A stretch of DNA of 64,000 bases from a virus (IMGVR_UViG_3300044653_000098:32001-96000); one strand, 5' to 3'; shown: positions 19,463 through 34,724, numbered from the stretch's first letter. Notes: generated by a model not told the origin, from the sequence alone. A program made the numbers and translations.

Positions 19463-19507
19463 TCCTGGCTCCGTTCTTTGGCCAACTGCTCATACATTAG
19501 CACGTCT

Positions 19508-19525: not shown

Positions 19526-19574
19526 GACTCTGCTAGGTTTCTCTCATGACCACAGCCCAGTAAACGGAGGCCAG

Positions 19575-20516
19575 ATGGAAACCTACACGTTCGCCGACCC
19601 TGAGCTGTCCCCTCTGCCCATGAAGTGGGTCTGGGACGGTTACATCCCGCGGTACTGCATGACGGAGGGGTACGGCGAGGGCGGGACGATGAAGGGCCTC
19701 GGCATTCAGAGCATCATCGCCCTGATCACCCTCGGTGCGGACATGCCGGACGGCAGCCTCAACGGGTTCGGTGGTCCGCGCACCGTGATCAGCATCACGG
19801 GCGAGGATCTGCTGCGGCAGGGCATGGCCTGGCGCTACCGCGCGGCCGGCGCCGACACCCGCAATATCGTGGATCTCAGCAAGGACGAGAACGGCCGGCC
19901 CTTCAAGCTGAACGACGCGGGGCTCGCGCGCATCCGCGAGGAGATCGCCAAGATCAACTCTCACGAGGGCAAGTACCGGCATATGCCGGACTACGGCTTC
20001 CTGTACCTCGACCCCATGATGAGCATCGCGCCCCGCAGCGTCACCCAGAACACCACGTTCCGTGCGGTGCTGCTCGAACCTCTCGACGCGCTGTGCGCCG
20101 AGGAGGAGCTTGGCAAGGACGGCACGGGCTGCTTCCTCATGAACCACTCGACCAAGGACAAGAAGGTCGTGGCCGGCTCGGCCGCCGCAGTGCAGGGCCC
20201 GCGCATGGTTCTCGGGTTCCGCCAGAGCGACCGCAACCCGCTGTGGCGTGAGCTGTACCGGTACAAGACCAATATCACCGAGAACACCCCGGCTCCCGTG
20301 CCGTACATGGGGGAGGGCAAGGACACCAGTATCCGCGTGCGGTGGATGACGGACTCCTGGGAGCAGCGCCGCAGCGGGTCCGGTGTCCTGAGCCGGTACG
20401 GCTCGCGCGCCTCGGAGGCCATGGCTCCCGCGCCAGTCCCGGCCCCGTACGCGGCGCCCGTTCCGCAGCCGGCCAGCGTTGGCGAGATGTGGAAGAATCT
20501 CCAGTCCAGCATGTGA
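19575..20516 (+). CDS. AAA_25 / RepA-helicase-like P-loop protein with degenerate Walker A
   Basis: WVWDGYIP...GEGGTMKG; ITGED; RYRAAGAD; FLYLDP; MNHSTK...AGSAA. Confidence 0.7.
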   Translation: METYTFADPELSPLPMKWVWDGYIPRYCMTEGYGEGGTMKGLGIQSIIALITLGADMPDGSLNGFGGPRTVISITGEDLLRQGMAWRYRAAGADTRNIVDLSKDENGRPFKLNDAGLARIREEIAKINSHEGKYRHMPDYGFLYLDPMMSIAPRSVTQNTTFRAVLLEPLDALCAEEELGKDGTGCFLMNHSTKDKKVVAGSAAAVQGPRMVLGFRQSDRNPLWRELYRYKTNITENTPAPVPYMGEGKDTSIRVRWMTDSWEQRRSGSGVLSRYGSRASEAMAPAPVPAPYAAPVPQPASVGEMWKNLQSSM

Positions 20517-20535
20517 TGTAGCCGCGGAGGCAGTC

Positions 20536-20811
20536 ATGGAACGCATGGAGCTTGCCGACGCACGGTCCGGGCCCGCCCTGCAGGAGGCTGTGCGTCTTGC
20601 GCGCGACAAGCAGCGCACGACCGAGATCATCGAGGATGGCATGGTGATTGCGGTCATCAGTCCCGCGCAGAGCGCGGAGCCGGGCCACGCTGCCCGCGGC
20701 CAGGCACCGGATGAGATCGAGCAGGGCATTGCCTCAGCCTCCCGGCTGAGCGCTGAGCTTGGCCTGGAGCTGACCCGTGTCCGCGATCTCGTTGCACAGC
20801 AGAGAGGGTAG
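20536..20811 (+). CDS. Hypothetical protein, possible Phd/YefM-like N-terminus
   Basis: GGAGG before ATG; EAVRLA...TTEIIEDGMVIAVISP. Confidence 0.4.
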   Translation: MERMELADARSGPALQEAVRLARDKQRTTEIIEDGMVIAVISPAQSAEPGHAARGQAPDEIEQGIASASRLSAELGLELTRVRDLVAQQRG

Positions 20812-20818
20812 CTCACCT

Positions 20819-20836
20819 GGTTGACACGTGTCTACC
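20819..20836. promoter_or_regulatory. Cassette palindrome copy 4 (TTGACA-N17-TAATAT on +)
   Basis: Exact motif; leader AGCCCAGCAAACGGAGGC at 20859-20876. Confidence 0.88.
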
Positions 20837-20880
20837 GCACCATTAATATAGATCTATCAGCCCAGCAAACGGAGGCGATT

Positions 20881-21120
20881 ATGTGGAGACAGCGTAAGCC
20901 TGAGACCCAGCGCCAGCCGCATCCCGACCCGTCTATTGAGGTCGAGCTGCAGCGGATCATCTCGCTTCAGCGCGCGGCAGCCCGCAAAGAGACTGAGCTG
21001 GATCAGCTCCAGGAGCTTACCGGCAGGCTGCGGAAGGCTATGCAGGCCGAGGCTAGTGCTGTTACCAGCAACGGAGAGCGCCGCAAGCAGATCGACCGGG
21101 CATGTCGGCCGGACCGGTGA
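20881..21120 (+). CDS. Small coiled-coil hypothetical protein
   Basis: ATG follows the conserved leader; in frame with ORF 20821..21120. Confidence 0.55.
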   Translation: MWRQRKPETQRQPHPDPSIEVELQRIISLQRAAARKETELDQLQELTGRLRKAMQAEASAVTSNGERRKQIDRACRPDR

Positions 21121-21235
21121 GCTGGAGGCGGAGGTCGTTCGGCTCCATGACGAGATAGCCAACCGCCTCACTCCTATGCGCGAGGAAGACCGCGCGTACC
21201 TGTACGACTCCACCAAACAGAGAGGATGATGCGCC

Positions 21236-21784
21236 ATGAAAGGTATCTGGACCAGAAACCACTTCGACGTGGTTGCCGCGGTGCTGCAGCGTGCTGTCGA
21301 CACGGCTGACCACATCGAGGGGCCGCAGGGGAGCAGTGCGCACCGCGCGCTGGAGTTCGTGTGCGAGGCATTCGTCGCGGTATTCAATGCGGACAGCGAG
21401 CGCTTCCAGCCCGACCGGTTCCGCCAGGCGGCCGGCCTTGACCCCAAGGGCACCACGGTGCAGCTCGATGAGCGGGAGATGTTCTTCTACGAGCACGCTA
21501 ACTGGGCCGGGAAGTTCGAGGGGGAGTCCGCGGCGCACGCCCGCGGCCGCACCGCGATCTTGCTGGCCGACGCGGAGCGGTGCCTGGAGAAGACACCGGA
21601 CACCCGGATCGAGTGGGAGCCTGACCCGGCAGGCAGGGTTGGCACGGATTTCTGGGGTGCCTACCTGTACCAGGGCGGCAGGTTCCTCGGCTCGGATGAG
21701 GTGGAGCTGACCGGCGACCCGGAGAAGGACGCTGTTCGCAAGAGAGTCACCACTGCGATCCTCGCGCTGGAGTACCTTGCCTGA
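21236..21784 (+). CDS. Hypothetical protein
   Basis: TRNHFDVVAAVL...F.ADSERFQPDRFRQAAG resembles a recurring small phage domain. Confidence 0.6.
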   Translation: MKGIWTRNHFDVVAAVLQRAVDTADHIEGPQGSSAHRALEFVCEAFVAVFNADSERFQPDRFRQAAGLDPKGTTVQLDEREMFFYEHANWAGKFEGESAAHARGRTAILLADAERCLEKTPDTRIEWEPDPAGRVGTDFWGAYLYQGGRFLGSDEVELTGDPEKDAVRKRVTTAILALEYLA

Positions 21785-21877
21785 CAGGAGGTGAGTGGAC
21801 TCCACCTCGGAGCACCAGTTCTGCACTGCAGGCTGGTGCTCCGCTTTGTGTGAGGGTACTCCGTAAGGCCGTAGATA

Positions 21878-21895
21878 GGTTGACACGTGTCTACC
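21878..21895. promoter_or_regulatory. Cassette palindrome copy 5 (TTGACA-N17-TACCAT on +)
   Basis: Exact motif; leader AGCCCACCGAACGGAGGC at 21922-21939. Confidence 0.88.
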
Positions 21896-21943
21896 GTACC
21901 ACTACCATAGGGGTAGATGAAAGCCCACCGAACGGAGGCCACC

Positions 21944-22240
21944 ATGACAGCCATACGGGTCACTGTGGAGGCGATGAAGCATCCCGAGGTGCGGGAAACA
22001 CTGGAGGTCGATACTGATCTGCCGCTCCCGCTCACTGCGGACGGGGTAGCGCAGCTCTGGAACTCCCTGAACGGCCAGAGCAAGGTCACGGCCGCCGCGG
22101 GGTCGTTCTGGATTCGCCACGTGCGCGACGAGCACGGCGGTTGTGTGGAGTGCGGCAAGCTCGTCTCCGGCCGGTTCGGCCATGGCCCGTCGTGCTCGGT
22201 GCCGACCGGCGGCGAGCCTACCCCGGTGCTGTTCTCGTGA
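21944..22240 (+). CDS. Hypothetical protein with CxxC...H..C motif
   Basis: Starts after the conserved leader. Confidence 0.6.
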   Translation: MTAIRVTVEAMKHPEVRETLEVDTDLPLPLTADGVAQLWNSLNGQSKVTAAAGSFWIRHVRDEHGGCVECGKLVSGRFGHGPSCSVPTGGEPTPVLFS

Positions 22241-22457
22241 GGCCGCACCGCTGCTCGCGCCGGCTGTGCTTCCGCATCGCCCACGTCTGGGTGGGTGTCC
22301 CCGGCTACTGGCCAGCCCCGTCGACCGTCGGCCGGTGGAGCTGCCGCCGGCATGCCAAGTACATCCAGAGCGCGATGAACGTGGCGCTCCGGTTCCCCGC
22401 CTAGGTGGGCTGGCCACGGTACTCCGATTATCCGTATGAGCAGAGAGGAGGCAGTTC

Positions 22458-22673
22458 ATGATCATTCGTACGGCTGGTGAGCCCGACCTAGGCCGGGCCG
22501 AGATCCTGCACGAGCTTGCGTGGGCTGCCTACGATGCCTCTATCGAGGAAGTAGCAGACGGCGCCTCCCTCGCTGAGGTAGAGACTGCAGCCCGGCGTGT
22601 CGACACGTCCGCGGTCAACCTCGCGGACACCTGCCAGGCGGCCGGCCTCACGCCGGTTGCACAGCCCGCCTAG
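22458..22673 (+). CDS. Small acidic hypothetical protein
   Basis: GAGGAGG SD. Confidence 0.5.
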   Translation: MIIRTAGEPDLGRAEILHELAWAAYDASIEEVADGASLAEVETAARRVDTSAVNLADTCQAAGLTPVAQPA

Positions 22674-22750
22674 CGGGTACCTTGATTGAGCCCGGTAAAA
22701 ACTAACTCAAGCCTGCTTGAGCATGTCTCTGCAAAGCCGGGCACAGCGCG

Positions 22751-22790
22751 CGGGCCCGGGATTAGCTACCCCGGGCCCGTTCGTTTCTCT
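22751..22790. terminator. Hairpin terminator between convergent genes
   Basis: CGGGCCCGGG-loop-CCCGGGCCCG followed by TTCGTTT. Confidence 0.65.
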
Positions 22791-22791
22791 C

Positions 22792-23100
22792 TCAGACCTC
22801 TGGCCGGCTCGGCCACGGAAACGCGCGCTGCAGCTCGGTCAGGTCGTATGGCGGCTCGTCCGGCGTCACGAGCGTGAAGTCCTGCACATCCACGATCGGG
22901 TACCCGGCAGTCTCAGCCTGTGCGGCCGCCTCGTCGCTGTCGCGCGCCTGGTAGCTCGGCCCGGTCCATCCGCTAGGGGCCATCACTGTGTACGTCTCCA
23001 GGCAGCTCTGCGGGCCGGGCTGAGCGGCCTCCTCGCCGGGCCCGTCTGGCTGGCCCGCGGCCTGCATGCGGAGGAGGTCTTTGGTCTGCTGTGCGTCCAT
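22792..23100 (-). CDS. Acidic hypothetical protein
   Basis: GAGGAG SD; 102 aa. Confidence 0.55.
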   Translation of the reverse strand: MDAQQTKDLLRMQAAGQPDGPGEEAAQPGPQSCLETYTVMAPSGWTGPSYQARDSDEAAAQAETAGYPIVDVQDFTLVTPDEPPYDLTELQRAFPWPSRPEV

Positions 23101-23103
23101 CGC

Positions 23104-23637
23104 TCAGCTCTCCTCATCCAGCACGATCCAGGTCTTGCCTTCCAGCGCACTGGGCTCCACGCGGGCCGGGTACTCCGATCCGTCGCGTGCCCGGACCAGC
23201 AGCGGAAGCTCCCTCGTCAGCGCGGGATTGGTTGCCGGGATGATGATTTCTCCGGCCGCTTCGATCAGGTCTGCGGGTGTGGCAGGCAGAGACACCACGG
23301 TGCTCTCAGCGAAGAGCAAGATCCGGAACGCGCTGTCGGCGATCTCCAGGACTTCCGCGCTCCCCTCCTCGTCCGGATCGCTGTCGAGAACCGGCTGTGA
23401 GTAGGCCGGCGGGATGATCCGGGAGGCTGACCACGAGTCTTCTGCGGCAACCTCTCCGTCCTCGTCGCGCACGGTGATCTCGCCTCCGCTGATTACCCTC
23501 CACATGTCTTCACGCGGCAGCTCGTAGCTGGAGCTGGCCACGATCCGCGCGGCTTCCTCCGCGTTCTCGGCTACGATGGTCACGTTTGAAACGATGGTCC
23601 GGGCAATCTCCACATCAAACTCTGTCATGGTCATCAC
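23104..23637 (-). CDS. Highly acidic hypothetical protein
   Basis: 177 aa, D/E-rich; degenerate leader ACCAGAACGGAAG. Confidence 0.6.
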   Translation of the reverse strand: MMTMTEFDVEIARTIVSNVTIVAENAEEAARIVASSSYELPREDMWRVISGGEITVRDEDGEVAAEDSWSASRIIPPAYSQPVLDSDPDEEGSAEVLEIADSAFRILLFAESTVVSLPATPADLIEAAGEIIIPATNPALTRELPLLVRARDGSEYPARVEPSALEGKTWIVLDEES

Positions 23638-23687
23638 TTCCGTTCTGGTTTGGTCTTGGGGGTCTCCGGGTCGGCCGAGAGGTGCGC

Positions 23688-24179
23688 TCAGCGCACCCAG
23701 TAGTCGACTCCGCCGAAGCTGACCGTGGAGTAGTCGATCTTGAGTTCGTCGGCCGCCGCTTCCCAGTCGATGCAGTTGACCGGCCAGTTGGCGTCCTTGT
23801 CGATCGCGCCTATGTCGTCGGCAAGCTGTTCCGCGTACTCCTCGAAGTAGCTGTCGCGGATGAGCGTGGCCCCGTGCTTCCAGTCGCCCGCGTTGCTCTC
23901 TCCGTCGCTGGCAAGCTCGCGGAGCTGCTCCAGTTCTTCCGTCTGGTCCTCGTCCAGCCCGACCCCGTACTCCTCTGCCTGCTCGCGCAGGCTGGCCAGC
24001 TCGGCCGCCTCGTCGTCGGACACCCCTGGGTCTGTCTCCAGTGCGCGCAGTTCCGCGAGTCGGCGCTCTTGCGCTTCCAGCTCGGACAGCTCTTCGATCC
24101 GCGCGATCACGTCGCGGCTGTCAATCAGGTCCTCGTCATTGGTGATCGGTTCGGTAGCTGTGATCTCTGCCATGTCCAT
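23688..24179 (-). CDS. ArdA-like acidic antirestriction / DNA-mimic protein
   Basis: Very D/E-rich; FEEYAEQLADDIG...CIDWEAAADELKIDY resembles the ArdA C-terminal region; leader at 24181-24198. Confidence 0.65.
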   Translation of the reverse strand: MDMAEITATEPITNDEDLIDSRDVIARIEELSELEAQERRLAELRALETDPGVSDDEAAELASLREQAEEYGVGLDEDQTEELEQLRELASDGESNAGDWKHGATLIRDSYFEEYAEQLADDIGAIDKDANWPVNCIDWEAAADELKIDYSTVSFGGVDYWVR

Positions 24180-24219
24180 CGCCTCCGTTTACTGGGCTGT
24201 GCTCACAGCTTAGCTGACA

Positions 24220-24237
24220 GGTAGACACGTGTCAACC
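24220..24237. promoter_or_regulatory. Cassette palindrome copy 6 (TTGACA-N17-TAAGCT on -)
   Basis: GGTAGACACGTGTCAACC. Confidence 0.88.
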
Positions 24238-24272
24238 AGTTAGGGAACTCCGGGAGAGGGCATAATAGAGCC

Positions 24273-24437
24273 GTGACCATTCTGGTGCTCAGCCTCCTGG
24301 CCCTGGCCTACCTGTGCCGCCGGCCGCTCGGCGCGTGGATGCTGAGCAAGCTCACGCGCCTGGCGGTCAAGCTCCGCCCGTTCGGCATCGCCTATGTGCT
24401 GATGCTCGCGTTTTTCTTTGGCGTCCTGCACGTCTGA
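24273..24437 (+). CDS. 54-aa two-helix membrane protein
   Basis: VTILVLSLLALAYLC...FGIAYVLMLAFFFGVLHV; CATAAT-N6-GTG; hairpin right after the stop. Confidence 0.5.
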   Translation: MTILVLSLLALAYLCRRPLGAWMLSKLTRLAVKLRPFGIAYVLMLAFFFGVLHV

Positions 24438-24470
24438 GGGCCCGCCCAGACGCATCTAGGCGGGCCCTTC
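24436..24470. terminator. Hairpin terminator between convergent genes
   Basis: AGGGCCCGCCCAGA-CGCA-TCTAGGCGGGCCCT. Confidence 0.65.
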
Positions 24471-24483
24471 GTGCGTTCGTGCG

Positions 24484-25158
24484 CTACTCCTCGTCGTCCT
24501 CGTAGAGCTTGACCTGTGCGCGCTGCTCTCCGTCGAAGAACTCGCGCTCTCCGTAGCTGCTGAGGATCAGGCCGAGAGTGCCGTAGTCGGCCACCACGGT
24601 TCCCTCGGTCCACAGCACCGGCTCCTGAGAGGGGTCCGAGGTGAACGTCACGGTGTCGTCCTCGGAGAACTGGACACCCTCCAGCGGCTTCATCTTGAGC
24701 GCGTCGGGCCCGTCCTCCTGGAACGCGTAGACCTCCTCCCCAATGTTGTCCGAGGTGCCGCGCTCGTCCTGGTACCACGCGTTGGGGTAGTACCCGGATT
24801 CCACCATGAGCTTGGCCAGCTCGTAGGTGGCAATCTCGCGCGTGGGGTAGCCCGGCTCCTGCCAGTTGGCCGGCCGGTGCGTGCTCTCCATGACCACGCG
24901 GTAGGCGCCGCGGTCCTCGGTTACGTAGCCATCGAACTCGTCGGGCAGGTCTTGCCAGCCGTCGACCAGTTCTTTGGCCTCTTCTGCGGCGTCCTGGAGC
25001 GCGCCGAGTAGTGCGTCCGCGTCGCTGGAGAACCGGCCGCAGTTGATCTCCACGTCTCCGTCCTCGTCTTCCACGTCGATCGTGAGGATGATGCCGCCGT
25101 CCTCGTCGTCCTGCCGGACGATCTTGAAAGAGGGGTTTCCGTGCAGTGTGAGCTTCAT
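24484..25158 (-). CDS. Highly acidic hypothetical protein (candidate DNA mimic)
   Basis: 224 aa, very D/E-rich; leader at 25163-25180. Confidence 0.7.
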   Translation of the reverse strand: MKLTLHGNPSFKIVRQDDEDGGIILTIDVEDEDGDVEINCGRFSSDADALLGALQDAAEEAKELVDGWQDLPDEFDGYVTEDRGAYRVVMESTHRPANWQEPGYPTREIATYELAKLMVESGYYPNAWYQDERGTSDNIGEEVYAFQEDGPDALKMKPLEGVQFSEDDTVTFTSDPSQEPVLWTEGTVVADYGTLGLILSSYGEREFFDGEQRAQVKLYEDDEE

Positions 25159-25201
25159 GTGCGCCTCCGTTTACTGGGCTATGGCAGCAGCTTAGCTGAT
25201 A

Positions 25202-25219
25202 GGTAGACACGTGTCAACC
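25202..25219. promoter_or_regulatory. Cassette palindrome copy 7 (TTGACA-N17-TAAGCT on -)
   Basis: Exact motif. Confidence 0.88.
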
Positions 25220-25251
25220 AAAAGGCCCCCGGAAGTTAGATCCGGGGGCCT
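25220..25251 (-). terminator. Intrinsic terminator of the upstream cassette
   Basis: AGGCCCCCGGA-loop-TCCGGGGGCCT with a T run on the minus strand, abutting the palindrome. Confidence 0.8.
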
Positions 25252-25267
25252 CCGTAAGGCCGGAGCG

Positions 25268-25663
25268 CTAGGAGACCAGCGCGAGGAATGGCGCTGTGGA
25301 CTTCGGCCGGCGGTATGGCGCGTACTGCCGTACCTGCCTGATGAAGTCAGCGCACCCCTTGTACTGGCCGATGATCGCATCCGGGTCGATCTTGAAGAGG
25401 TGCGCGATCATCCAGCCGTAGTCATCCCACGACGCGGCGCGCGCCTCGTCATCCAGCGGATAGCTGCCGATCGTGCGGTGTGCGGTCGGCCTCGTGCCGT
25501 TGTGGCTGTAGGCATAGAACTGCACGCCATGGCTGTAGCCGGCCAGCCGCGGGCGGAAGTCCTGAACATCGTCGGGCCAGATGTCGGCCCCGTTCAGCAG
25601 ACGCGCCAGGCGGAAAGCCTCGCGCACGTCGTCTGAGGTGATTTTGGTGCTGTAGACCTTCAT
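25268..25663 (-). CDS. Hypothetical protein
   Basis: 131 aa; AASWDDYGWMIAHLF.IDPDA; leader at 25671-25688. Confidence 0.7.
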   Translation of the reverse strand: MKVYSTKITSDDVREAFRLARLLNGADIWPDDVQDFRPRLAGYSHGVQFYAYSHNGTRPTAHRTIGSYPLDDEARAASWDDYGWMIAHLFKIDPDAIIGQYKGCADFIRQVRQYAPYRRPKSTAPFLALVS

Positions 25664-25716
25664 GGGCTCGGCCTCCGTTTAGTGGGCTTGGCTTCCATCA
25701 CCTATCTAAGCACATT

Positions 25717-25734
25717 GGTAGACACGTGTCAACC
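25717..25734. promoter_or_regulatory. Cassette palindrome copy 8 (TTGACA on -)
   Basis: Exact motif. Confidence 0.85.
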
Positions 25735-25814
25735 ACCTAGGGAACTCCGTAAGGCCGGAGGCAGCAAAGACCGCCCGCACCGGCAGGCACGAGCGGTCTC
25801 TAGCCTCGATGCAG

Positions 25815-26111: not shown

Positions 26112-26309
26112 GTGATCAGCTCCATTCTCCGATGCATCTATTTTGGCAACAGGCCAAGCTCGCGCATGTCCTCCATCACCACCCCGAACGGGCTGGAGCC
26201 GTCCGGGATCGCTGCCACGCGCCTGGCGAGATCAGTCAGGTACAGCCGCACCGCAAGCGCGTAGGTCTCAGGCGTGCCATGGAATTGCCAGGGCACGCGC
26301 ACGGCCGGC

Positions 26310-26669: not shown

Positions 26670-26688
26670 CTTGCTTCCGATGCACTTC

Positions 26689-27054: not shown

Positions 27055-27458
27055 GCGGACACCGCGCGGAAGATCTCAGCGCGCTGAGCGTCCGTCCAGT
27101 CCCCTACCACGTAGACGCTTACCTCTTCCTTTTCCGTGGTGTAGTTGTCCGGCAGGCTGCAGCTCAGCCACGCATGCGCGCTCAGCTCCGCGGGCACGGG
27201 GCTTACGCTTGGCTCGTAGGCTCCGGTGCGCTGGATACGCTCCACAGCCCACGCCACGCGCGCCGCGCTCTCGCGCTTGGACGCTCCGAGGTAGCGGCGC
27301 ACGCTGTACCACGGAAGTGGCTCCGGCCCGTCAAACTCAGGATCGTAAGCTTCCGTGTCGGTGCCATGGTCCCGGATCTCGCGGGAATCGCCTTCCATCC
27401 ATTCCCCCTCTTCTGAGTAGGGGTCAATGGTGCGCCGGTAGATCTGAATTTCGTACAT
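27051..27458 (-). CDS. Hypothetical protein
   Basis: 135 aa; leader at 27463-27479. Confidence 0.7.
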   Translation of the reverse strand: MYEIQIYRRTIDPYSEEGEWMEGDSREIRDHGTDTEAYDPEFDGPEPLPWYSVRRYLGASKRESAARVAWAVERIQRTGAYEPSVSPVPAELSAHAWLSCSLPDNYTTEKEEVSVYVVGDWTDAQRAEIFRAVSA

Positions 27459-27504
27459 GCTGGCCTCCGTTTGTGGGCTTGCTGTGTCCTCATTGTCTCA
27501 TGCC

Positions 27505-27522
27505 GGTAGACACGTGTCAACC
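27505..27522. promoter_or_regulatory. Cassette palindrome copy 9 (TTGACA-N17-GACAAT on -)
   Basis: Exact motif; followed by hairpin ACGGAGCCCCG...CGGGGCTCCGT (about 27528-27563). Confidence 0.85.
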
Positions 27523-27580
27523 ACAGCACGGAGCCCCGCACCTCTGCAGGCACGGGGCTCCGTACGGGCTTAGGCGGCCC

Positions 27581-28810
27581 CTAGTCGCGGCCGGCTGTGC
27601 CCGCGGGGAGGTCATCCCACGCGGTGTGCTGAATCCTCCGGCCATCCTCGCTGATCTCATACAGCACGGTGCAGCTCCGGGCCTTGACCTTGTTGCCGAC
27701 CGGAACCATGCTCGCGTAGTCGACCGCACAGGCAAGGAAGCGCACGCCCCGCACATACTCGCGCGTGTCCTCTGCGGTAGCGCAGAAGTGCAGACCGTGT
27801 CCGCAGTGCGGCTCCGGGGTGTAGTCCTCCGCTGTGACCGTGGAGCCAATCTCATACCGGATATCGCCATGGCCGACGGGCGAGCTCAGGTCAGCTAGCA
27901 CAGCCTTGACCAGTGTCACGGTCTTGCCGTCATCGCTGAGCGTCAGGCCACGCTCAGCGAGCCAGCGTGGTCTGGCGTTGCGCGCGTCACGCTTGGCTCT
28001 CCGCTGCGCAGCCTTGAGCCGGCGGACAGCCTCCGCACGCTCGCGCGCTTCGGTCTCCAGCCGTGCTGCCTTCTCTTCTGGGGTCTCGTACAGCCGCTTG
28101 GCGTTCGGATCGATCACCATGCCGGAACTGTCCACGCGGATACCGTCATAGAAGATCGCCGGCCGTTGCTGTGAGCCGTAGTCGGCAACCTTCGAGCCGT
28201 GGCAGTTGTGGCACGTGGCCTGATGCTGGCCGGTCACACCCATGCCGCGGTGCCTGTGCCATTGGCCAACCACGCGTACGGTTTCTGGCTGATCACGGAG
28301 AGGCCAGCCATTGCGCTGTAGTGCGGTTGGCACAGGCTCATTCCAGCGCACTGCAAAGTCATATGACCATTCAGAGCATGGGTAGGTCCGGCCCTCTATT
28401 CCCCGGTAGTGGTTGGTAACCGAGTAGTCGGCCGGGTGGTAGTAGCTGACCGTGCCCCAATCGTTTACGGTGACCAGTCCCGTGCCCTTGCACGTGCGGC
28501 ACTTCTGGAGCTTGGCCGGCATGTGGGGGTCTGAGCTGTGCCACACAGCCCAGACGCCACGGTGTGAGTACACCCGCGCGGGCCCGTAGCCATTGATCCT
28601 GTCTTTGGTGGTGACGGTCTCCCACCCGCCAGTGTTCAGGGTGTACGTGCCGTCTGCATGGATGGCCACCACGTCTGTGTTGTGGAGCCGGACAGCGTAG
28701 TTGCTACCTCTCTCCACTAGATAAGTGTTGTTCTGCAGCTTGCGCCGTGGTCCGTATCCGCGGTCCTGAGCACGCGCCATCATGGTCTGTGCGTCTTGGT
28801 AGCTGAGCAT
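27581..28810 (-). CDS. Multidomain hypothetical protein with split CxxCxG Zn finger
   Basis: 409 aa; RKLQNNTYL...TGGWETVTTKDRIN; CRTCKGTG...CHNCHG; YEIGSTV...CGHGLHFC; leader at 28818-28834. Confidence 0.7.
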   Translation of the reverse strand: MLSYQDAQTMMARAQDRGYGPRRKLQNNTYLVERGSNYAVRLHNTDVVAIHADGTYTLNTGGWETVTTKDRINGYGPARVYSHRGVWAVWHSSDPHMPAKLQKCRTCKGTGLVTVNDWGTVSYYHPADYSVTNHYRGIEGRTYPCSEWSYDFAVRWNEPVPTALQRNGWPLRDQPETVRVVGQWHRHRGMGVTGQHQATCHNCHGSKVADYGSQQRPAIFYDGIRVDSSGMVIDPNAKRLYETPEEKAARLETEARERAEAVRRLKAAQRRAKRDARNARPRWLAERGLTLSDDGKTVTLVKAVLADLSSPVGHGDIRYEIGSTVTAEDYTPEPHCGHGLHFCATAEDTREYVRGVRFLACAVDYASMVPVGNKVKARSCTVLYEISEDGRRIQHTAWDDLPAGTAGRD

Positions 28811-28863
28811 TGGTGCCGCCTCCGTTTGTGGGCTTGACCTTGTGACCTCACCTTAGCATGGCT

Positions 28864-28881
28864 GGTAGACACGTGTCAACT
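28864..28881. promoter_or_regulatory. Cassette palindrome copy 10 (TTGACA-N18-TAAGGT on -)
   Basis: GGTAGACACGTGTCAACT. Confidence 0.85.
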
Positions 28882-28882
28882 A

Positions 28883-28920
28883 GAAACCTCCCGTACCCTG
28901 TGGCGGATACGGGAGGTTTC
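28883..28920. terminator. Terminator hairpin abutting the palindrome
   Basis: GAAACCTCCCGTA-loop-TACGGGAGGTTTC, 13-bp stem. Confidence 0.8.
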
Positions 28921-28937
28921 CGGGGGTGAGCTGAGAG

Positions 28938-29474: not shown

Positions 29475-29479
29475 GGCGG

Positions 29480-29662
29480 TTACCTCCCCTGCCTGATCAG
29501 GTATCCGAAGCCGGCCGCGTCGCGCTGGTCAGCGCGGAATGCGGCACGCTGCAGACTGGCACGCCGGCGGGCACGCTGCATGCGGCCGGCCTTGACGGCC
29601 AGGCGTTCAGCCAGCGGCGCACGCGGAGCCGCGTGGCGTGGGGTGGGGTTGGTGTCGTTCAT
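29480..29662 (-). CDS. Small basic hypothetical protein
   Basis: MNDTNPTP... after leader at 29670-29687. Confidence 0.55.
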   Translation of the reverse strand: MNDTNPTPRHAAPRAPLAERLAVKAGRMQRARRRASLQRAAFRADQRDAAGFGYLIRQGR

Positions 29663-29714
29663 TGTTCTAGCCTCCGTTTGGTGGGCTTGCTTACAGGTCA
29701 ATCCTCGCACGGAC

Positions 29715-29732
29715 GGTAGACACGTGTCAACC
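29715..29732. promoter_or_regulatory. Cassette palindrome copy 11, bidirectional
   Basis: TAGACA-N18-TAGTCT on +, TTGACA-N18-GAGGAT on -; mirror-image leaders at 29670-29687 and 29756-29773. Confidence 0.9.
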
Positions 29733-29780
29733 TCTCGTGCTAGTCTGATCTCATCAGCCCACCAAACGGAGGCACCCAAA

Positions 29781-29993
29781 ATGTTCAATCTCTACGTATG
29801 GGAAGGCGTCCTAGCAGGCTGGTCAAGCGGCATGGCTGTGGCGATCGGCCGCACGCAGGATGAGGCCATAGCCACGCTTGACCGCCTCACGCCTAAAGAT
29901 GTGCGTGAGCTGCAGAAGGAAACCCCGGAGGTTATCCCGTTGCGTGCCCGTGGCATGACGCCTAGAGGCTGGTACCTCTACGGGGGAGACTAA
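29781..29993 (+). CDS. Hypothetical protein (70 aa, MFNLYVWEGVL...)
   Basis: Starts after the conserved leader. Confidence 0.65.
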   Translation: MFNLYVWEGVLAGWSSGMAVAIGRTQDEAIATLDRLTPKDVRELQKETPEVIPLRARGMTPRGWYLYGGD

Positions 29994-30024
29994 GGGAACC
30001 CCGTAAGGCCGTTCACACGCGCCG

Positions 30025-30639
30025 ATGTGTGCGAGCGTGCCTGTTGTCGACTCGGCGGATATCTCCGATCTTCCGCCGGCGTTGCGGCCGCGTAAGGCCA
30101 GCGTGCCCGACGCGCTCTCTGATCTGCCCGTCGGGTTCAACGTGCTGCATGAGCCACGGCCGGCCGCTCAGCGCGCGGAGGCTGCACCGCTAGTTGTCCA
30201 GTGCTATCACTGTGCGCGCATCCGCCACAGCAAGTGTGCGCGCATTGCCGGAACGGGCCCGTGCCTGTGCTACCAATGCCACAGATTTAAGATCATTGCC
30301 GACGCTGAGTCAGCGCTCACCTCGCGTGACGCGCGGCGTTTGGCCGAATCGCTGCAGCTAACTCTGATCTTGCTAGCGCAGCGCATAGGCCGTGAGCCTA
30401 AAGACAATCCCGACCCCTATCCTCCTCGCGCTTGCGCGTGCGGCTGTGGCCGGCTCGTCTACAGCTCATCCCGCGGAGGCGCACGGAAGAAATACGCTCG
30501 CAAGTCATGCCTCAAGGCGGCCGACGCGCGACGTTCCCGGGCCCGCAAGCGAGAAGGGAAAACGGGCACGTTCGTGCTTATCTCCGCGTTCGATGCAGAT
30601 GGTTTCCCCCTGCCTGGCATGGTGGCTCCGCCGGCCTAG
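30025..30639 (+). CDS. Cys-rich Zn-binding hypothetical protein
   Basis: CYHC, CLCYQC, CACGCGR...KYARKSC. Confidence 0.5.
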   Translation: MCASVPVVDSADISDLPPALRPRKASVPDALSDLPVGFNVLHEPRPAAQRAEAAPLVVQCYHCARIRHSKCARIAGTGPCLCYQCHRFKIIADAESALTSRDARRLAESLQLTLILLAQRIGREPKDNPDPYPPRACACGCGRLVYSSSRGGARKKYARKSCLKAADARRSRARKREGKTGTFVLISAFDADGFPLPGMVAPPA

Positions 30640-30675
30640 GCGGGCCCTAGGCCCGGACGGTATGCCACGATGCAC

Positions 30676-30984
30676 TTATTTTGTGAGGTGCGCGTAGGGG
30701 TCTTGACCTTCTGGGTAGATCACCCATGGCTCGTCTGGGCCAGCCTCCCCGTAGCACGTGCCTAGCGGGTGGGGGGTCTCGTTATCCGCTATGGCCAGGA
30801 AAGCATCACGGTCGAATCCGGGTAGCAAGTTCTCAAGATCATAAGAGACTTGCTCCATGAAAGCTCCGGCTATCCGCGCGCAATCGTCGGTTGGCTCCAT
30901 GCCCATATCGATCATCTGCCGGTACATTTCGCTCATGCGCCGTGCGAGCGTTCCGGTAAGGCTGTCTGTGCTCATGGTCATCAC
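30676..30984 (-). CDS. Hypothetical protein
   Basis: GAGGAG SD; PGFDRDAFL echoes the F.PDRF motif of 21236..21784. Confidence 0.55.
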   Translation of the reverse strand: MMTMSTDSLTGTLARRMSEMYRQMIDMGMEPTDDCARIAGAFMEQVSYDLENLLPGFDRDAFLAIADNETPHPLGTCYGEAGPDEPWVIYPEGQDPYAHLTK

Positions 30985-31046
30985 TCCTCACCAATCCACG
31001 GCTATCCAGCAGATAGCCTCTCCGGACGGTGTGGGCACGGTGTCAG

Positions 31047-31994
31047 TCATGAGAGCGCGCCAATCTGGTAACCGAGGCGGGCAGTGAATGCGCGCATGCC
31101 GTCAAGATCCCCGGTGCAGCGGGGATCGGCTGTGGCAATCGAGAGCGTGAGCGCTCCCCATACCATCCACAGCTCAGCGAGCGACAGCACCCATGGCTGC
31201 GGGTTGCTGAGCTTGCCGTGGAGCGAGCGGAGCCGCGCGGAGTTAGCTTCCGTCGCGCCGGCGTTCTCAAGCTCGCTCAGCGCGTTCTCTGCGGCATCCT
31301 GAGCCATGGCACGCTCAGCGCTCGTGAGCAGTCCGGCCGGCCGCGGGTAGGTCTCTATCGGCCGTTGCTCTCCGTTGACGAACTGAAAATGATCTCCCGC
31401 GTACTCAGCCGACCACACGCGCTCGCGGTCCGCTTCCCGTGCCCACAGCTCAGACGCCATGAGCGCGGCTGAGTCAAAGTCAATCCCTGCGTACTGCTGC
31501 AGCGCTTGCGCTATCTGACACCAGCACGCGCACGTTCCCGCGTGCACAGGATTACCGCAGCTCTGGCACCAATCCGGAGCGCCGCGCGAGCGGAGCCATG
31601 CATCTACCGCGTCCGTAACCGCATTGGCCATGTCCGTTTCAGCGTCGCTGAACATCACCTCGCTCAGCTCATCCCCGCGCGGCTGGTAGCCGTCTAGCGC
31701 TGTGATCACGTATTCGTTGGCGTCCACATGATCATGCAGCTCAGCAAACGAGCGCGCGGTGTCCGGGATGACGCCGGCCGCTATGTCCTCCGTGATCATG
31801 CGCTGCACCTCTGTGGCGTAGCGCTGAATATCGGCCGGCTGTGGCACTATCGCTAGCGCATCCTTGTGCTCTGCCGACCGTAGGCAGTTCCCGCACGTGA
31901 CGTCAGACCATGCTGCGGTGTAGACGCAACGGTGCGCCGGCATGTGGCACGGTGACCAGGATGCGCCCGGTTGCCTGTAATGGGTCTTGCTCAT
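31047..31994 (-). CDS. Multidomain hypothetical protein
   Basis: MSKTHY after leader 32002-32018; VTCGNC; SFAELHDHVDANEY; CQSC. Confidence 0.7.
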   Translation of the reverse strand: MSKTHYRQPGASWSPCHMPAHRCVYTAAWSDVTCGNCLRSAEHKDALAIVPQPADIQRYATEVQRMITEDIAAGVIPDTARSFAELHDHVDANEYVITALDGYQPRGDELSEVMFSDAETDMANAVTDAVDAWLRSRGAPDWCQSCGNPVHAGTCACWCQIAQALQQYAGIDFDSAALMASELWAREADRERVWSAEYAGDHFQFVNGEQRPIETYPRPAGLLTSAERAMAQDAAENALSELENAGATEANSARLRSLHGKLSNPQPWVLSLAELWMVWGALTLSIATADPRCTGDLDGMRAFTARLGYQIGALS

Positions 31995-32043
31995 CTCGCT
32001 AGCCTCCGTTTGTGGGCTGTGGAGTCTCCACCGTACCATGCAC

Positions 32044-32061
32044 GGTTGACACGTGTCTACT
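32044..32061. promoter_or_regulatory. Cassette palindrome copy 12 (TAGACA-N18-TACGGT on -)
   Basis: GGTTGACACGTGTCTACT; followed by hairpin AGACCCCCGGA-N5-TCCGGGGGTCT (32069-32095). Confidence 0.85.
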
Positions 32062-32114
32062 CAGCACAAGACCCCCGGAGGCTATCCGGGGGTCTGTGTG
32101 GGCTTGGTTGTGGC

Positions 32115-32645
32115 CTAGTGGTTGTTCCCCTCGTCATACAGCCACGTGCCGCACATACGCTCATCACGGCAGATTGCCGACCCGTAGACCTCCGTTTTCC
32201 AGCCGGCCACGAGCTGAGCGAACTCAAGGTCAAGGCTGATCAGCACTATGTCTTGGGCACCATCGGCCGTCCAGTCATACACGGTGTAGGTCACCACGCC
32301 GGCGTCTTGCGCGCGGAGCCATGCGTTGCCGGCCGGAATCGCGGCGAACATCGGCGCGCACTCTGAGAAGTCCTCCGCAAGCTCAGCCTCCGCTGCTTCT
32401 ACGCGAGCACGGTCGGCTGTCGGGTCGTACATTCGGTTCCCAAAGTGTGAGAGCGGTGCATGGATCGGTTCGTCAAGCTCTCCAGCCTCCGCGGCGTCCA
32501 TAGCTGCGCTAATGGCGGCCGAGTTGCGCTGCAGCTCATCCTGCAACTGTGCGGCCGCGCGCTTGGCTACGGCGATCTTCTGTTCCGGGGACAGCTCCCC
32601 AAACCTCTTGCCGGCCGGCCACGCTGTGGGATCGTTCGGGTCCAT
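32115..32645 (-). CDS. Hypothetical protein
   Basis: MDPNDPTAW after leader 32654-32671. Confidence 0.65.
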   Translation of the reverse strand: MDPNDPTAWPAGKRFGELSPEQKIAVAKRAAAQLQDELQRNSAAISAAMDAAEAGELDEPIHAPLSHFGNRMYDPTADRARVEAAEAELAEDFSECAPMFAAIPAGNAWLRAQDAGVVTYTVYDWTADGAQDIVLISLDLEFAQLVAGWKTEVYGSAICRDERMCGTWLYDEGNNH

Positions 32646-32696
32646 TGCTCTGTGCCTCCGTTTGGTGGGCTGTGGAGACTCCATAGTCGCATGCGG

Positions 32697-32714
32697 GGTA
32701 GACACGTGTCAACC
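32697..32714. promoter_or_regulatory. Cassette palindrome copy 13, bidirectional
   Basis: TAGACA-N18-TAGACT on +, TTGACA-N18-GACTAT on -; leaders on both sides. Confidence 0.9.
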
Positions 32715-32771
32715 AGACACGCTAGACTCATCCCACGATGCACAGCCCACCAAACGGAGGCAAAGACTCAG

Positions 32772-33101
32772 ATGGCAAACATCAAATCTCATGACGGCCA
32801 GGCGCACATGAGCGCCACCTACAGCAAGCCGGAAGAGACGGCCAGCCTCACCACAGACGGCAAGACGCACCTGACGCTGACCGTCACCACAGACGGCCGC
32901 TTGCTGCGCAAGACAGCTCACCGTTTCCGCTCATCACAGCGCAAGTGCGGCTACCGGCTCAGCAGCACGGATTACCGCCTCGTGACCAAGGTCAGGGTGC
33001 ATCCTTCCCGCCTCACAGAGGAATACCGGCCGCAGCTCCGCGCTGATCTGGCAGCCATAGCGGCACGGTGGGGGTATGCCCCCGACCACACGGAAGCCTG
33101 A
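32772..33101 (+). CDS. Basic hypothetical protein
   Basis: MANIKSH after leader 32744-32761. Confidence 0.65.
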   Translation: MANIKSHDGQAHMSATYSKPEETASLTTDGKTHLTLTVTTDGRLLRKTAHRFRSSQRKCGYRLSSTDYRLVTKVRVHPSRLTEEYRPQLRADLAAIAARWGYAPDHTEA

Positions 33102-33143
33102 GCACGCCCACAGACGCACGTGCTGTTAGCTCAGCTCCCAAAA

Positions 33144-33183
33144 TACGGGCCGGAGGAAAAGCACAGCTAGCCTCCGGCCCGTA
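33144..33183. terminator. Hairpin after 32772..33101
   Basis: TACGGGCCGGAGG-loop-CCTCCGGCCCGTA. Confidence 0.65.
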
Positions 33184-33240
33184 CTCATGCGCCTAGGTGT
33201 CTCCACAGCAATCCGCGCACAAGAGCTAGCTCAGCTCTCC

Positions 33241-33350
33241 AGCCCCGCACAGCCGCTCGCGTGGCCTCCGTCCCGGGCGTGCCTGTGGGCATGATGTAGA
33301 GCCGTTATGCACCCATAGCCACAGCCCGCTAGTAGCGTCTGCGCGGGGCT
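33241..33350 (+). ncRNA. Candidate structured RNA in a 350-bp intergenic gap
   Basis: Outer 17-nt stem with 2 mismatches, nested stems with G-U pairs. Confidence 0.35.
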
Positions 33351-33455
33351 GAGCTTAACGGAGACAGCCGTACAGCCCTACCCGTATGTAATCGGGTAGG
33401 GCAAACGGCAGAATCGCTCTCAGGGCCGTACAGCTACAAGCGCTGCAGCCATGCG

Positions 33456-34670
33456 TCATCTATCGCGGCGTCCGTCTTGCGGTGCTTGCCTTCCCGCGTG
33501 CCGCGCCTTCATGCCGGCCTCCCACCTGTCCAGAGCGGACAGCACGTCAGCCTGTGCAGTGAGGCTGAGTGTCGCGGTGTAGACGAGTCCGTCAATGACT
33601 ACGAGTGTCAGGCTGACATAGCACTGCGGGCACACGGGCATGTCCCCGCCACACAACTCGCTGTAGGCGGTCAGTGTGCCATCACACGGGGCTGAGCAGT
33701 TCTCACAGCTCACAAGCTCAGCCGGCGCGGTGTAGGGGTGACCCTGCCATGGTGAGTCCGGCCGGTGCGCGTTACGGCCGCACGTGGTGCAGCGCTTGGA
33801 GTTGTGAGCCCCGGACACGTCATCCTTGGCCGGCTGTGCCGTGTCCTCACGCACGGGGCGGAGGTTCGGCCACGTGTAGCCAAGCGCGTAGTGGTCGGCA
33901 CTGTGCCCGTCGGTGAAACTGCAGGTCAGACCCGGCATTCCGGGGTGCATGGACGGGCACGGCTGAGCGTTCGCGCTGGTCCGCTCTTCCGCCGGCTCGT
34001 GCCGTTCCGTGCACGGGATCACCGCTATGGAGTCCCCATCGCTGTAGTGCCGCAGCTCTTCGTGGTAGTGCAGCTCGTGCCGCTCGCTGATCTCGTCTAT
34101 GAGCGCGTTCGTGTCGGCTAGCTCCCGCGCGTCATCGGCCGGCAGCACCTCTAGCGGCTGGTCAGTGTCGTGGGGTCCGTTCATGCCCCGCGCGTCACAC
34201 AGCCACGTGCGCTCGTACTCCACGTACACCAGACGCCACGTGCCTCCGGGGGTCATGCGGAACACTGGCCGGTGACAGTAGCTGCAGGTTCCCTCTTCCG
34301 GCTTCTCAGCTCCCACAACCACAGCAGCCTGAGCGTGCCCGCGTACGCGCGCCTCTTCCGGGCTGGTCACCATGGCTAGCAGCTCATCCGCTACGTGGCC
34401 GGTCTCCGCCATGCGCACGCGCTTGCCTGAGTCCGTCAGCACGTTGCCGTTGTCCTCGTGTCCGGGGCTGAGCGCTTCCGCTGCGGCTGTGGGCACGTAG
34501 AACACCTGCAGCTCAGGGTGAGCCGTGCCAAAGATTCCAGCAAGCTCATAAGCCTGATCCCACGTGCCCGCGTAGTTCGCCGCGCGCTGGAACCGGTTGG
34601 CTGTGGGCTTGCGGTAGGCGATCGTCCATGTGGCTATGGTGCGACTCTCGTGCGTGTTGGTGCTGGTCAT
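33456..34670 (-). CDS. Multidomain protein with several Cys/His (Zn) modules
   Basis: MTSTNTH after leader 34675-34691; CSYC, CTTC, CENC, CPQC. Confidence 0.7.
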   Translation of the reverse strand: MTSTNTHESRTIATWTIAYRKPTANRFQRAANYAGTWDQAYELAGIFGTAHPELQVFYVPTAAAEALSPGHEDNGNVLTDSGKRVRMAETGHVADELLAMVTSPEEARVRGHAQAAVVVGAEKPEEGTCSYCHRPVFRMTPGGTWRLVYVEYERTWLCDARGMNGPHDTDQPLEVLPADDARELADTNALIDEISERHELHYHEELRHYSDGDSIAVIPCTERHEPAEERTSANAQPCPSMHPGMPGLTCSFTDGHSADHYALGYTWPNLRPVREDTAQPAKDDVSGAHNSKRCTTCGRNAHRPDSPWQGHPYTAPAELVSCENCSAPCDGTLTAYSELCGGDMPVCPQCYVSLTLVVIDGLVYTATLSLTAQADVLSALDRWEAGMKARHAGRQAPQDGRRDR

Positions 34671-34724
34671 CTGTGCCTCCGTTTGCTGGGCAGTTGGGTC
34701 AACCATGCTCAGGCTTTCAATGGA

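Follow-up and report, generated by a model that had tools for sequence, protein, structure and literature searches.

A bipartite start-associated leader downstream of palindromic promoters in an uncultured 142-kb phage

The closest described counterpart of the element considered here is the start-associated sequence (SAS) of the cluster K mycobacteriophages, a 13-bp motif, GGGATAGGAGCCC, which is located 3-9 bp before the mostly ATG starts of non-structural genes and contains conserved bases that are unable to pair with the 16S rRNA (PMC3203893). The role of the SAS, described in 2011 (PMC3203893), was still called unknown in 2024 and 2025 (PMC11373665; a survey of 188 genomes, PMC12699233), and the extended start-associated sequence (ESAS) found with it has since been interpreted as a SigA-like promoter accompanied by an inverted repeat (Adephagia, PMC11373665). 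A SAS-like motif, GGGAAAGGACCCC, with ten copies at ribosome-binding positions and likewise of unknown function, is present in Microbacterium phages of cluster EF (PMC7302621). Here, we describe a leader of 17-18 nt that precedes 14 genes of an uncultured phage, all of them within a 64,000-nt stretch (hereafter, the window) formed by bases 32001-96000 of the IMG/VR virus record IMGVR_UViG_3300044653_000098, whose genome of 141,724 bp (66.8% G+C) is rated complete. The host of this 142-kb high-GC phage is probably an actinobacterium; positions refer to the window unless they are called genome positions.

This leader shows the features by which the SAS class can be described, namely at least ten copies, a ribosome-binding position that includes a Shine-Dalgarno (SD) core, one orientation with ATG as the start, and a link to an inverted-repeat promoter 21-32 nt upstream. 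The sequences themselves differ, AGCCCA-N1-2-RAACGGAGGC being the form found here, and the new motif does not lie within two mismatches of the cluster K consensus.

A constant leader behind palindromic promoters

The leader is composed of a 5' block, AGCCCA, and a 3' block, RAACGGAGGC, joined by a free linker of 1-2 nt. When searched as AGCCCA-N{1,2}-R-AACGGAGGC, it has 13 exact matches, compared with none in 100 dinucleotide shuffles, and chance or low complexity was therefore rejected as the source of the motif. The 14th copy (34675-34692, minus strand) reads TGCCCAGCAAACGGAGGC and carries a single mismatch, T replacing the first A. All 14 copies fall within 19.5-34.7 kb, with no further copy in the rest of the 141,724-bp genome, in an array that has large tail genes on one side and replication genes (SNF2 helicase, DnaB-like helicase and family A polymerase) on the other. 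Copies were either perfect or absent in a relaxed scan, since sites with three mismatches remain at chance level (9 outside the array vs 7-24 in shuffled genomes), a decayed copy at 19467-19484 excepted. The copies and what follows them are:

19554-19571, plus strand: leader copy 1, AGCCCAGTAAACGGAGGC; ATG at 19575, AAA_25 ATPase-like gene, 313 aa
20859-20876, plus strand: leader copy 2; ATG at 20881, open reading frame (ORF) of 79 aa without homologue in the close relative G001
21922-21939, plus strand: leader copy 3, GAAC variant; ATG at 21944
24181-24198, minus strand: leader copy 4, before an antirestriction-like gene (23688-24179)
25163-25180, minus strand: leader copy 5; ATG at 25158
25671-25688, minus strand: leader copy 6; ATG at 25663
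27463-27479, minus strand: leader copy 7, 17-nt form; ATG at 27458; cargo replaced in G001
28818-28834, minus strand: leader copy 8, 17-nt form; ATG at 28810, DUF7666 protein, 409 aa
29670-29687, minus strand: leader copy 9, minus side of the two-faced palindrome 29715-29732
29756-29773, plus strand: leader copy 10, on the plus side of palindrome 29715-29732; G001 lacks the leader as well as the 70-aa ORF
32002-32018, minus strand: leader copy 11, 17-nt form; ATG at 31994
32654-32671, minus strand: leader copy 12, minus side of the two-faced palindrome 32697-32714; G001 cargo differs after about 4 codons
32744-32761, plus strand: leader copy 13, on the plus side of palindrome 32697-32714
34675-34692, minus strand: leader copy 14, the one-mismatch form; ATG at 34670; cargo mostly replaced in G001

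The original prediction, made from the sequence of the window, had placed 14 copies at these positions and on these strands, each a few nucleotides before an ATG and downstream of a palindrome, and every one of them is recovered in that arrangement. ATG follows GGAGGC after 1-10 nt in 14 of 14 copies, the leader always has the orientation of its gene, and none of these genes is structural; elsewhere in the genome, a crude gene call gives ATG starts for 86 of 146 genes. In the same call (n = 146), GGAGG precedes 41 of the genes outside the array and shorter cores precede 53, and AACGGAGG precedes none. The expectation that such genes use ordinary AGGAGG sites or lack a leader altogether is thus roughly right, a leaderless start behind the same type of promoter being found at 14832. 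Within the motif, AGCCCA stands 5-6 nt 5' of GGAGG with 1 nt of play, whereas its distance to the -10 box varies by 7 nt.

Upstream of each of the 14 leaders lies a palindrome, which in 13 cases is GGTTGACACGTGTCTACC with at most two mismatches and in the 14th is the degenerate GTAGACACAGGTCTAC; the gap between palindrome and leader is 21-29 nt for 13 copies and 32 nt for the 14th. The 18-bp palindrome presents a -35 box on either strand, TTGACA on one and TAGACA on the other, and is followed, 17-18 nt past the -35, by a TAnnnT-like hexamer (TAGGTT, TAATAT, TAAGCT, TAGTCT and others, with GAnnAT in three copies). Two of the palindromes (29715-32 and 32697-714) are flanked on either side by a leader and gene that they serve. 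A strict consensus scan recovers only part of the promoters and terminators. The palindromes are:

19508-19525: palindromic promoter of leader 1, GGTTGACACGTGTCTACC; -35 TTGACA, -10 TAGGTT 18 nt on
20819-20836: palindromic promoter of leader 2
21878-21895: palindromic promoter of leader 3
24220-24237: palindromic promoter of leader 4
25202-25219: palindromic promoter of leader 5
25717-25734: palindromic promoter of leader 6
27505-27522: palindromic promoter of leader 7
28864-28881: palindromic promoter of leader 8
29715-29732: two-faced palindromic promoter of leaders 9 and 10
32044-32061: palindromic promoter of leader 11, TAGACA face
32697-32714: two-faced palindromic promoter of leaders 12 and 13
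34726-34741: degenerate palindrome GTAGACACAGGTCTAC of leader 14, perfect in G001

The leader begins 8-15 nt past the -10 hexamer in 13 copies and about 18 nt past it in the 14th, and overlaps the hexamer in none. Given the usual distance of 6-8 nt between the -10 box and the start of transcription, it would begin in those 13 copies at about +1 to +9 of the mRNA, and the shortest spacing puts its first A at about the predicted start site. Since it is located between the predicted start site and the ATG, the leader would represent nearly the whole 5' untranslated region (5'UTR) of the promoter-proximal gene. G+C-rich hairpins precede several of the palindromes, in one case followed by TTTT, so that most units look like self-contained cassettes. 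Palindrome promoters are also found with other 5'UTRs or with leaderless starts (14832 and 15741 in the window; 9063 and 134995 in the genome), which indicates that the leader is not a promoter element. Every full leader is promoter-proximal and the internal genes of the small operons are devoid of it; the claim that the leader covers the whole array consequently fails, both for these internal genes and for several palindrome promoters.

Two further observations concern these promoters. At 14795-14834 and at genome positions 134995-135030, the palindrome promoter drives apparently leaderless genes whose ATG stands 6-7 nt past the -10 box, and the spacer at genome position 134995 almost matches the one of leader copy 1, yet has no leader. 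In addition, a small hairpin, CTCCGGCCTTACGGAG, is present three times (0.08 expected) just 5' of palindrome promoters, at 21859-21874, 25250-25265 and 25745-25760 (minus strand), sometimes followed by TTCCCTA, and its arm CGGAG(G) resembles the SD part of the leader.

Selection on the leader and exchange of its cargo

Conservation ends sharply at the edges of the motif. Information content reaches 2.0 bits at five of the six AGCCCA positions and at nine of the ten RAACGGAGGC positions, whereas it amounts to 0.0-0.7 bit in the 20 nt upstream and to at most 1.1 bit in the 10 nt downstream; pairwise identity of the two flanks is 27% and 33%. The only close relative of the genome under study (G000) is IMGVR_UViG_3300043788_000169 (G001), which is syntenic, 77-96% identical in nucleotide sequence and carries 14 leader copies as well. 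When the 13 orthologous pairs of the two genomes are compared, 3 of 208 sites have changed in the blocks and 2 of 195 in the palindrome, as opposed to 39 of 354 in the spacer and 6 of 23 in the linker, where the changes include 1-nt indels. The resulting rates of 1.4% for the blocks, 11% for the spacer and 26% for the linker differ significantly by Fisher tests (blocks vs spacer, p = 8e-6; blocks vs linker, p = 3.5e-5), and the retention of changes 2 nt away from invariant bases implies purifying selection at single-base resolution.

These rates also bear on the view that the motif has no function beyond that of its SD core, its copies being alike through recent duplication or through homogenisation by gene conversion. 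Spacer pairs are indeed similar in places (24235/25217; 32059/32712), so that whole units do duplicate, and the leaders are looser in L040 and G006, two of the more distant cases described below. However, the flanks and the linker stand at random level while the blocks do not vary among 13 copies or among the orthologues of these, a linker of 1-2 nt would not be spared by conversion tracts, and the copies are either perfect or decayed with nothing intermediate. Recent duplication alone, which the original prediction had singled out as the finding that would undo its proposal, is excluded by the same linker, together with gene conversion, and an absence of function beyond the SD core is accordingly highly improbable.

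The selected bases are probably not explained by base pairing with the ribosome. The canonical 3' end of actinobacterial 16S rRNA is CCUCCUUUCU-3', and against this end, which may not be that of the host, only GGAGG pairs, although AGCCCA and both flanking Cs are invariant. Judged by this end, extended pairing would not account for the motif, as in AAAC-GGAGG-C the 5-bp core is bounded by a mismatched C on either side; invariant Cs that are mismatches to the canonical 16S suggest that the additional bases do not form an extended SD sequence. The original prediction had regarded the bases beyond GGAGG as extra, and their own selection and sharp information edges substantiate this. A mini-ORF ending at the TAA inside AGCCCAGTAAAC was likewise discarded, because it fits two copies only.

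Two decayed copies can be added to those of the original prediction:

19467-19484, minus strand: decayed leader TGGCCAAAGAACGGAGCC, minus face of the first palindrome; G001 has the intact AGCCCAGAGAACGGAGGC
21208-21224, plus strand: decayed internal leader CTCCACCAAACAGAGGA, before the gene at 21236; G001 has an intact leader directly before that gene

In G001, the intact leader directly precedes a 182-aa gene (window 21236), whereas in G000 the two are separated by an inserted ORF of 79 aa. The copy that thereby became internal, at 21208-24, is changed at 4 of 15 block positions, although the gene itself remains 92% identical to that of G001. From this single case, it would seem that the motif is needed in full only where it stands at the transcript's 5' end.

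The genes behind the leaders, by contrast with their promoters and leaders (about 99% identical between the two genomes), are readily exchanged. Four of the 14 cargo genes (20881, 27051, 29781 and 32115) have no homologue in G001, that at 33456 is largely replaced, and the remaining cargo proteins are 44-98% identical. At 20875 and 27460, homology between the two genomes breaks off at the leader's 3' edge, and at 29754 at the 5' edge of a plus-strand leader; at 32633 and 34647, it does so 21-28 nt into the downstream unit. Being constant in every slot, promoter and leader provide junctions for the exchange of cargo between related phages. One cargo gene, 23688-24179 on the minus strand, is antirestriction-like (phrog_25535, with a weak match to phrog_2059). 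Its homologues belong to phages of both Proteobacteria and Actinobacteria, with Caulobacter, Ralstonia, Burkholderia, Citromicrobium, Mycobacterium, Gordonia and Arthrobacter as hosts; that of Mycobacterium phage Phlei is an internal gene with an ordinary AGGAG site. Such a wide spread suggests that the array carries mobile early anti-defence genes.

Exchange of cargo at the leader edges is a by-product of this organization. A stronger proposal would be that leader and palindrome are kept mainly as a recombination anchor, that is, as short homology for swaps of cargo between co-infecting relatives, for which the breakpoints just listed, the replaced cargo behind nearly identical promoters and leaders, and the insertion of the 79-aa ORF between a leader and a decayed leader could all be cited. 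Nevertheless, 18 nt with a free linker in the middle are short for homologous recombination, an anchor has no need of purifying selection on single bases of the blocks but not of the linker, and its benefit would amount to second-order selection. Selection for expression would leave junctions at the same spots, and breakpoints at gene starts are also expected from selection on recombinants. The original prediction had offered a homology anchor as an option, and of this the mosaic breakpoints at leader edges stand, while the same pattern would arise from the selection of recombinants; as the main reason for the conservation of the leader, an anchor is improbable.

The leader in related phages and its genomic setting

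In an IMG/VR scan, G001 was the one other genome where the motif forms an array, the 16 further matches being single and in unrelated contexts, and a scan of prokaryote genomes gave only single scattered matches among the matches listed. Cultured phages include no relative at the nucleotide level; the nearest PolA among them is that of Microbacterium phage Magritte, with 35% identity, and the AAA_25 cargo protein has no match among cultured phages. Relatives with 67-72% amino-acid identity (P0005, P0006 and P0016) are encoded on 140-kb metagenome contigs, and PolA-based searches gave distant relatives at 34-44% identity. The AAA_25 gene itself has an orthologue in L039 (58% identity) that is leaderless behind GTTGACACAAGTCAAC, and another in L040 (54% identity) that is preceded by a looser leader, CCCCAGTGTGAGGAGC; a further L040 gene has AGCCCCACAGGAGGC.

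Among the distant relatives, one has a system of comparable design. In IMGVR_UViG_3300036831_000148 (G006; 146 kb, 71% G+C, PolA 42% identical), 11 units are formed by the palindrome cTTGACTCTAGTCAAG, which contains TTGAC, with a -10 box and a leader behind it and either ATG or GTG as the start. Its leader is C/A-rich, AGGCAACC(A/G)A(C/G)CGAGAGGCAGGCAC, starts 6-8 nt past the -10 box, and has a 3' block, GGCAGGCAC, that also precedes internal genes. Homology between the leaders of G000 and G006 is not claimed, since 15 of 19 positions match but p = 0.13 when composition is kept. On the minus strand of G006 between 104 and 137 kb, a SAS-like (R)RRGGCAGGCAC precedes about 15-20 gene starts, with or without cTTGACTCTAGTCAAG, and this pattern is closer to that of cluster K than is the G000 array. 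The same genome has, at 126960-127030 on the minus strand (loci L058-L065), a strong intrinsic terminator directly 5' of a palindrome promoter, with a 13-bp G+C-rich stem, a U-tract and an unusually large loop of 22 nt, GAUUGGUUGCCUGCCUUUCGCA, that is complementary to the G006 leader over 11 nt of the 5' block, or over 12 nt of the SD block with one G-U pair; 11-mer matches of this kind occur genome-wide in about the number expected by chance.

The other genomes compared lack a common leader. IMGVR_UViG_3300050821_009780 has TTGACT promoters in a different palindrome, GACTTGA-N-CAAGTC (for instance at 64038, 67501, 113436, 125067 and 132737), and two low-GC genomes, G003 and G004, are without the palindrome-leader system. 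It is equally absent from IMGVR_UViG_3300045450_000050, where an unrelated motif, ACGCGCTAAC, occurs in 27 copies (L073-L079, mainly at 86-103 kb) inside a longer unit, ctattcttgcacgtc-ACGCGCTAAC-gcacaagc, that looks like a phage-specific promoter or regulatory repeat. From these sequences, the TTGAC palindrome promoter, with its -35 box in the palindrome, is a trait of the group whose palindrome sequence is specific to each lineage, and a constant leader is a feature of some lineages only, again with a lineage-specific sequence. Lineage-specific sequences argue against a universal host site, and the pattern fits either a lineage-specific reader or a compositional need (C/A-rich, unpaired) sharpened in G000 and G001.

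As for the surroundings of the array, Pfam searches with 40 cassette, flanking and replication proteins gave only AAA_25, DUF7666 and an HNH domain for the array and its vicinity, the small flanking proteins having no match, and the expected PolA, SNF2 and DnaB matches for the replication genes further off. No integrase or repressor turned up among the phage proteins screened. Between the array and an HNH endonuclease gene (35734-36363), about 0.8 kb (34900-35700) without a convincing ORF holds scattered short repeats, among them CAGCTCAGCTC twice, GTGATG/CATCAC inverted pairs and C-rich runs, and may be an origin or another cis site.

Possible level of action and known systems

We propose, with a probability of about one half, that the leader is a start-associated tag that acts in the mRNA of first cistrons. 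About 14 early transcription units would then share a constant 5' untranslated leader, each unit consisting of a host sigma-70/HrdB-type promoter with its -35 (TTGACA or TAGACA) inside the 18-bp palindrome, a variable stretch of 21-29 nt that would contain the TAnnnT-like -10 and the start site, the 17-18-nt leader and, finally, the ATG. Of the two invariant blocks, AGCCCA and (A/G)AACGGAGGC, only GGAGG would serve as the SD sequence. As a short tag at the 5' end without significant predicted structure, the leader would set ribosome loading on the first cistron, and it would probably be recognised by a single trans-acting reader, by which the early genes would be controlled jointly after transcription.

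The position of the leader inside the predicted transcript, its orientation with the gene and its tie to the SD sequence with 1 nt of play fit such a role, and to this extent the RNA-level control layer of the original prediction stands; the same features do not separate action on the RNA from a site in the DNA. The transcription start sites, the action on RNA and the existence of a reader are inferred. Several points weigh against the mRNA tag. An asymmetric DNA operator would be equally compatible with the orientation of the leader and its closeness to gene starts, and the leader is dispensable for the same gene, AAA_25, in relatives. Deep conservation of its sequence is not supported by the comparison with G006 (p = 0.13), and decay at an internal position rests on one case, with the G006 3' block also preceding internal genes. 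Moreover, no reader was found, the CsrA and T4 RegA families being absent and the flanking small proteins having no Pfam match.

The lack of significant structure is apparent from several analyses. No Rfam 15 covariance model reached its gathering score anywhere in the window, the folding of the 13 predicted 5' regions does not exceed that of shuffled sequences (mean z-score of about +0.4), and the motif by itself can form a weak GCC/GGC hairpin of -2.3 to -3.8 kcal/mol, which again is no better than in shuffles. Two known types of reader were considered and set aside: a CsrA/RsmA-type GGA regulon, for which the motif does contain ACGGA, has no PF02599 match in the phage at E <= 1, and T4 RegA-type repression has no PF01818 match at the same threshold.

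A possible antisense partner of the leader is offered by two orphan sites upstream of the last cassette, both exact 13-mers and the only other places in the genome that have the leader 3' block:

34786-34798: orphan half-leader 1; minus strand TAAACGGAGGCTG, plus strand CAGCCTCCGTTTA, an exact antisense of the 3' block; no ORF behind; conserved in G001
34842-34878: orphan half-leader 2; plus strand AGCCCAGTA, a 7-bp hairpin and CAGCCTCCGTTTA; minus strand TAAACGGAGGCTG at 34866-78; no ORF behind

On either strand, the second site is sense in one half and antisense in the other. The CAGCCTCCGTTTA sites are identical in G001, where the AGCCCAGTA half has one change (AGCCCGGTA); the sites could belong to an anti-leader RNA, or be decoys or relics. 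A specific form of the mRNA tag would have one phage-encoded reader, either an RNA-binding protein or a candidate anti-leader RNA from 34770-34920 with two exact CAGCCUCCGUUUA, bind AAACGGAGGC and AGCCCA in all 14 mRNAs and switch their translation off or on together, which we consider doubtful. The RNA version of this proposal can be stated more narrowly, namely that an antisense RNA from the plus strand of 34770-34920, with the opposite face of the last palindrome as its promoter, would pair, through its two single-stranded CAGCCUCCGUUUA, with the 3' block AAACGGAGGC of the 14 leaders and shut off translation of the array. In its favour, the orphan 13-mers adjoin the last two-faced palindrome, lack a following ORF and recur unchanged in G001, the plus-strand fold leaves site 2 single-stranded beside the 7-bp hairpin (site 1 being partly paired), the predicted pairing would span 10-12 nt, and the sole variable position of the 3' block (A/G) pairs with U either way. 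However, the plus strand has no convincing promoter, the -10 at the right spacing being TCCCAT or CTCTAT, one G001 substitution in the hairpin fits the minus strand better, and identity over 16 nt does not reach significance where the region as a whole is 86% identical (about 0.09 per site). The sites, available from two genomes only, may equally be relics of leader duplications or minus-strand decoys, and shut-off by such an antisense RNA is unlikely.

Alternatively, the leader could act in the DNA, as an asymmetric operator like the stoperators of cluster A at which a phage protein would block RNA polymerase just past each early promoter. It is asymmetric and oriented with transcription, it accompanies a promoter in 14 of 14 cases and never stands alone before a gene, and the copy that became internal has decayed, all of which would be expected of an operator. 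On the other hand, the distance to the promoter varies by 8 nt whereas that to the SD sequence and ATG is fixed, the SD sequence is an integral and invariant part of the motif, and a linker that varies by 1 nt suits single-stranded recognition better. Furthermore, no repressor or helix-turn-helix protein was identified nearby, no repressor-like domain being present in the flanking genes scanned, and the palindrome is already operator-like. A DNA operator is distinctly unlikely, and a stoperator/repressor system in particular is not supported, its sites being confined here to 15 kb with no repressor-like domain in those flanking genes.

The locus is of interest as an independent example of a SAS in an unrelated phage lineage, and as a clean new case of an old open question. 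What it adds is that every copy is unambiguously linked to a sigma-70-type promoter, that purifying selection on non-SD bases is visible base by base and can be set against a free internal linker, and that natural swaps of cargo end at the leader. These results define the bases to be mutated, and show the unit to behave like a standard slot for the expression of early genes that evolve fast, one or more of them antirestriction-like. Any reader of the tag would act as a master switch for the translation of early genes, and a shared reader would provide a mechanism for start-associated sequences, which have been unexplained since 2011. As an expression part, the unit of promoter and leader might further be of use in high-GC actinobacteria.

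When compared with known systems, the leader resembles the cluster K SAS in being a short asymmetric motif with 11-19 copies per genome at a ribosome-binding position and with an SD core, and probably also in having conserved bases that would not pair with the 16S rRNA (here judged by the canonical 3' end). Both are found in one orientation, before non-structural (early) genes of different families only and with a strong preference for ATG, and both have an upstream inverted repeat that holds a SigA-like -35 and -10. With the ESAS being a SigA promoter with an inverted repeat (PMC11373665), the analogy with cluster K, a system of different sequence, is even closer than first claimed. In contrast to the cluster K SAS, the leader is longer and bipartite with a free linker, and every copy is promoter-proximal, whereas about half of the cluster K SAS lack an ESAS. 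One 18-bp two-faced palindrome over the -35 takes the place of the two 17-bp repeats with a spacer of the ESAS, and the phage, at 142 kb, is unrelated to the temperate cluster K phages of about 60 kb. The motif of cluster EF shares the ribosome-binding position and an upstream element for each copy, but differs in sequence and phage group, and its upstream element is poorly conserved and not read as a promoter (PMC7302621). The stoperators of cluster A (sites of L5 gp71; cited in PMC3203893) are likewise asymmetric, short, numerous in each genome, oriented with transcription and located in short intergenic gaps; there, however, they are repressor-bound DNA sites distributed genome-wide and without an SD sequence, whereas the leader includes one and is confined to 15 kb.

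Finally, two systems of post-transcriptional control are relevant as functional models. In phage T4, RegA is a translational repressor and RegB an endoribonuclease that cuts GGAG in early SD sequences, so that one phage factor acts on many early initiation regions, as would be the case for a shared leader. The T4 targets are degenerate, unlike the constant 18-nt tag found here, and the RegA family is absent from this phage (RegB was not searched for). In Aca2-type control of anti-CRISPR operons, an inverted repeat in the promoter is combined with an RNA element in the 5'UTR over the ribosome-binding site. No Aca-like helix-turn-helix protein was found among the flanking genes scanned. The combination of a promoter inverted repeat with an RNA element at the ribosome-binding site of early anti-defence genes is common to both, but in the Aca2 system the RNA element folds into a stem-loop in imitation of the DNA repeat, whereas the leader described here is unrelated to its palindrome and has no significant structure.

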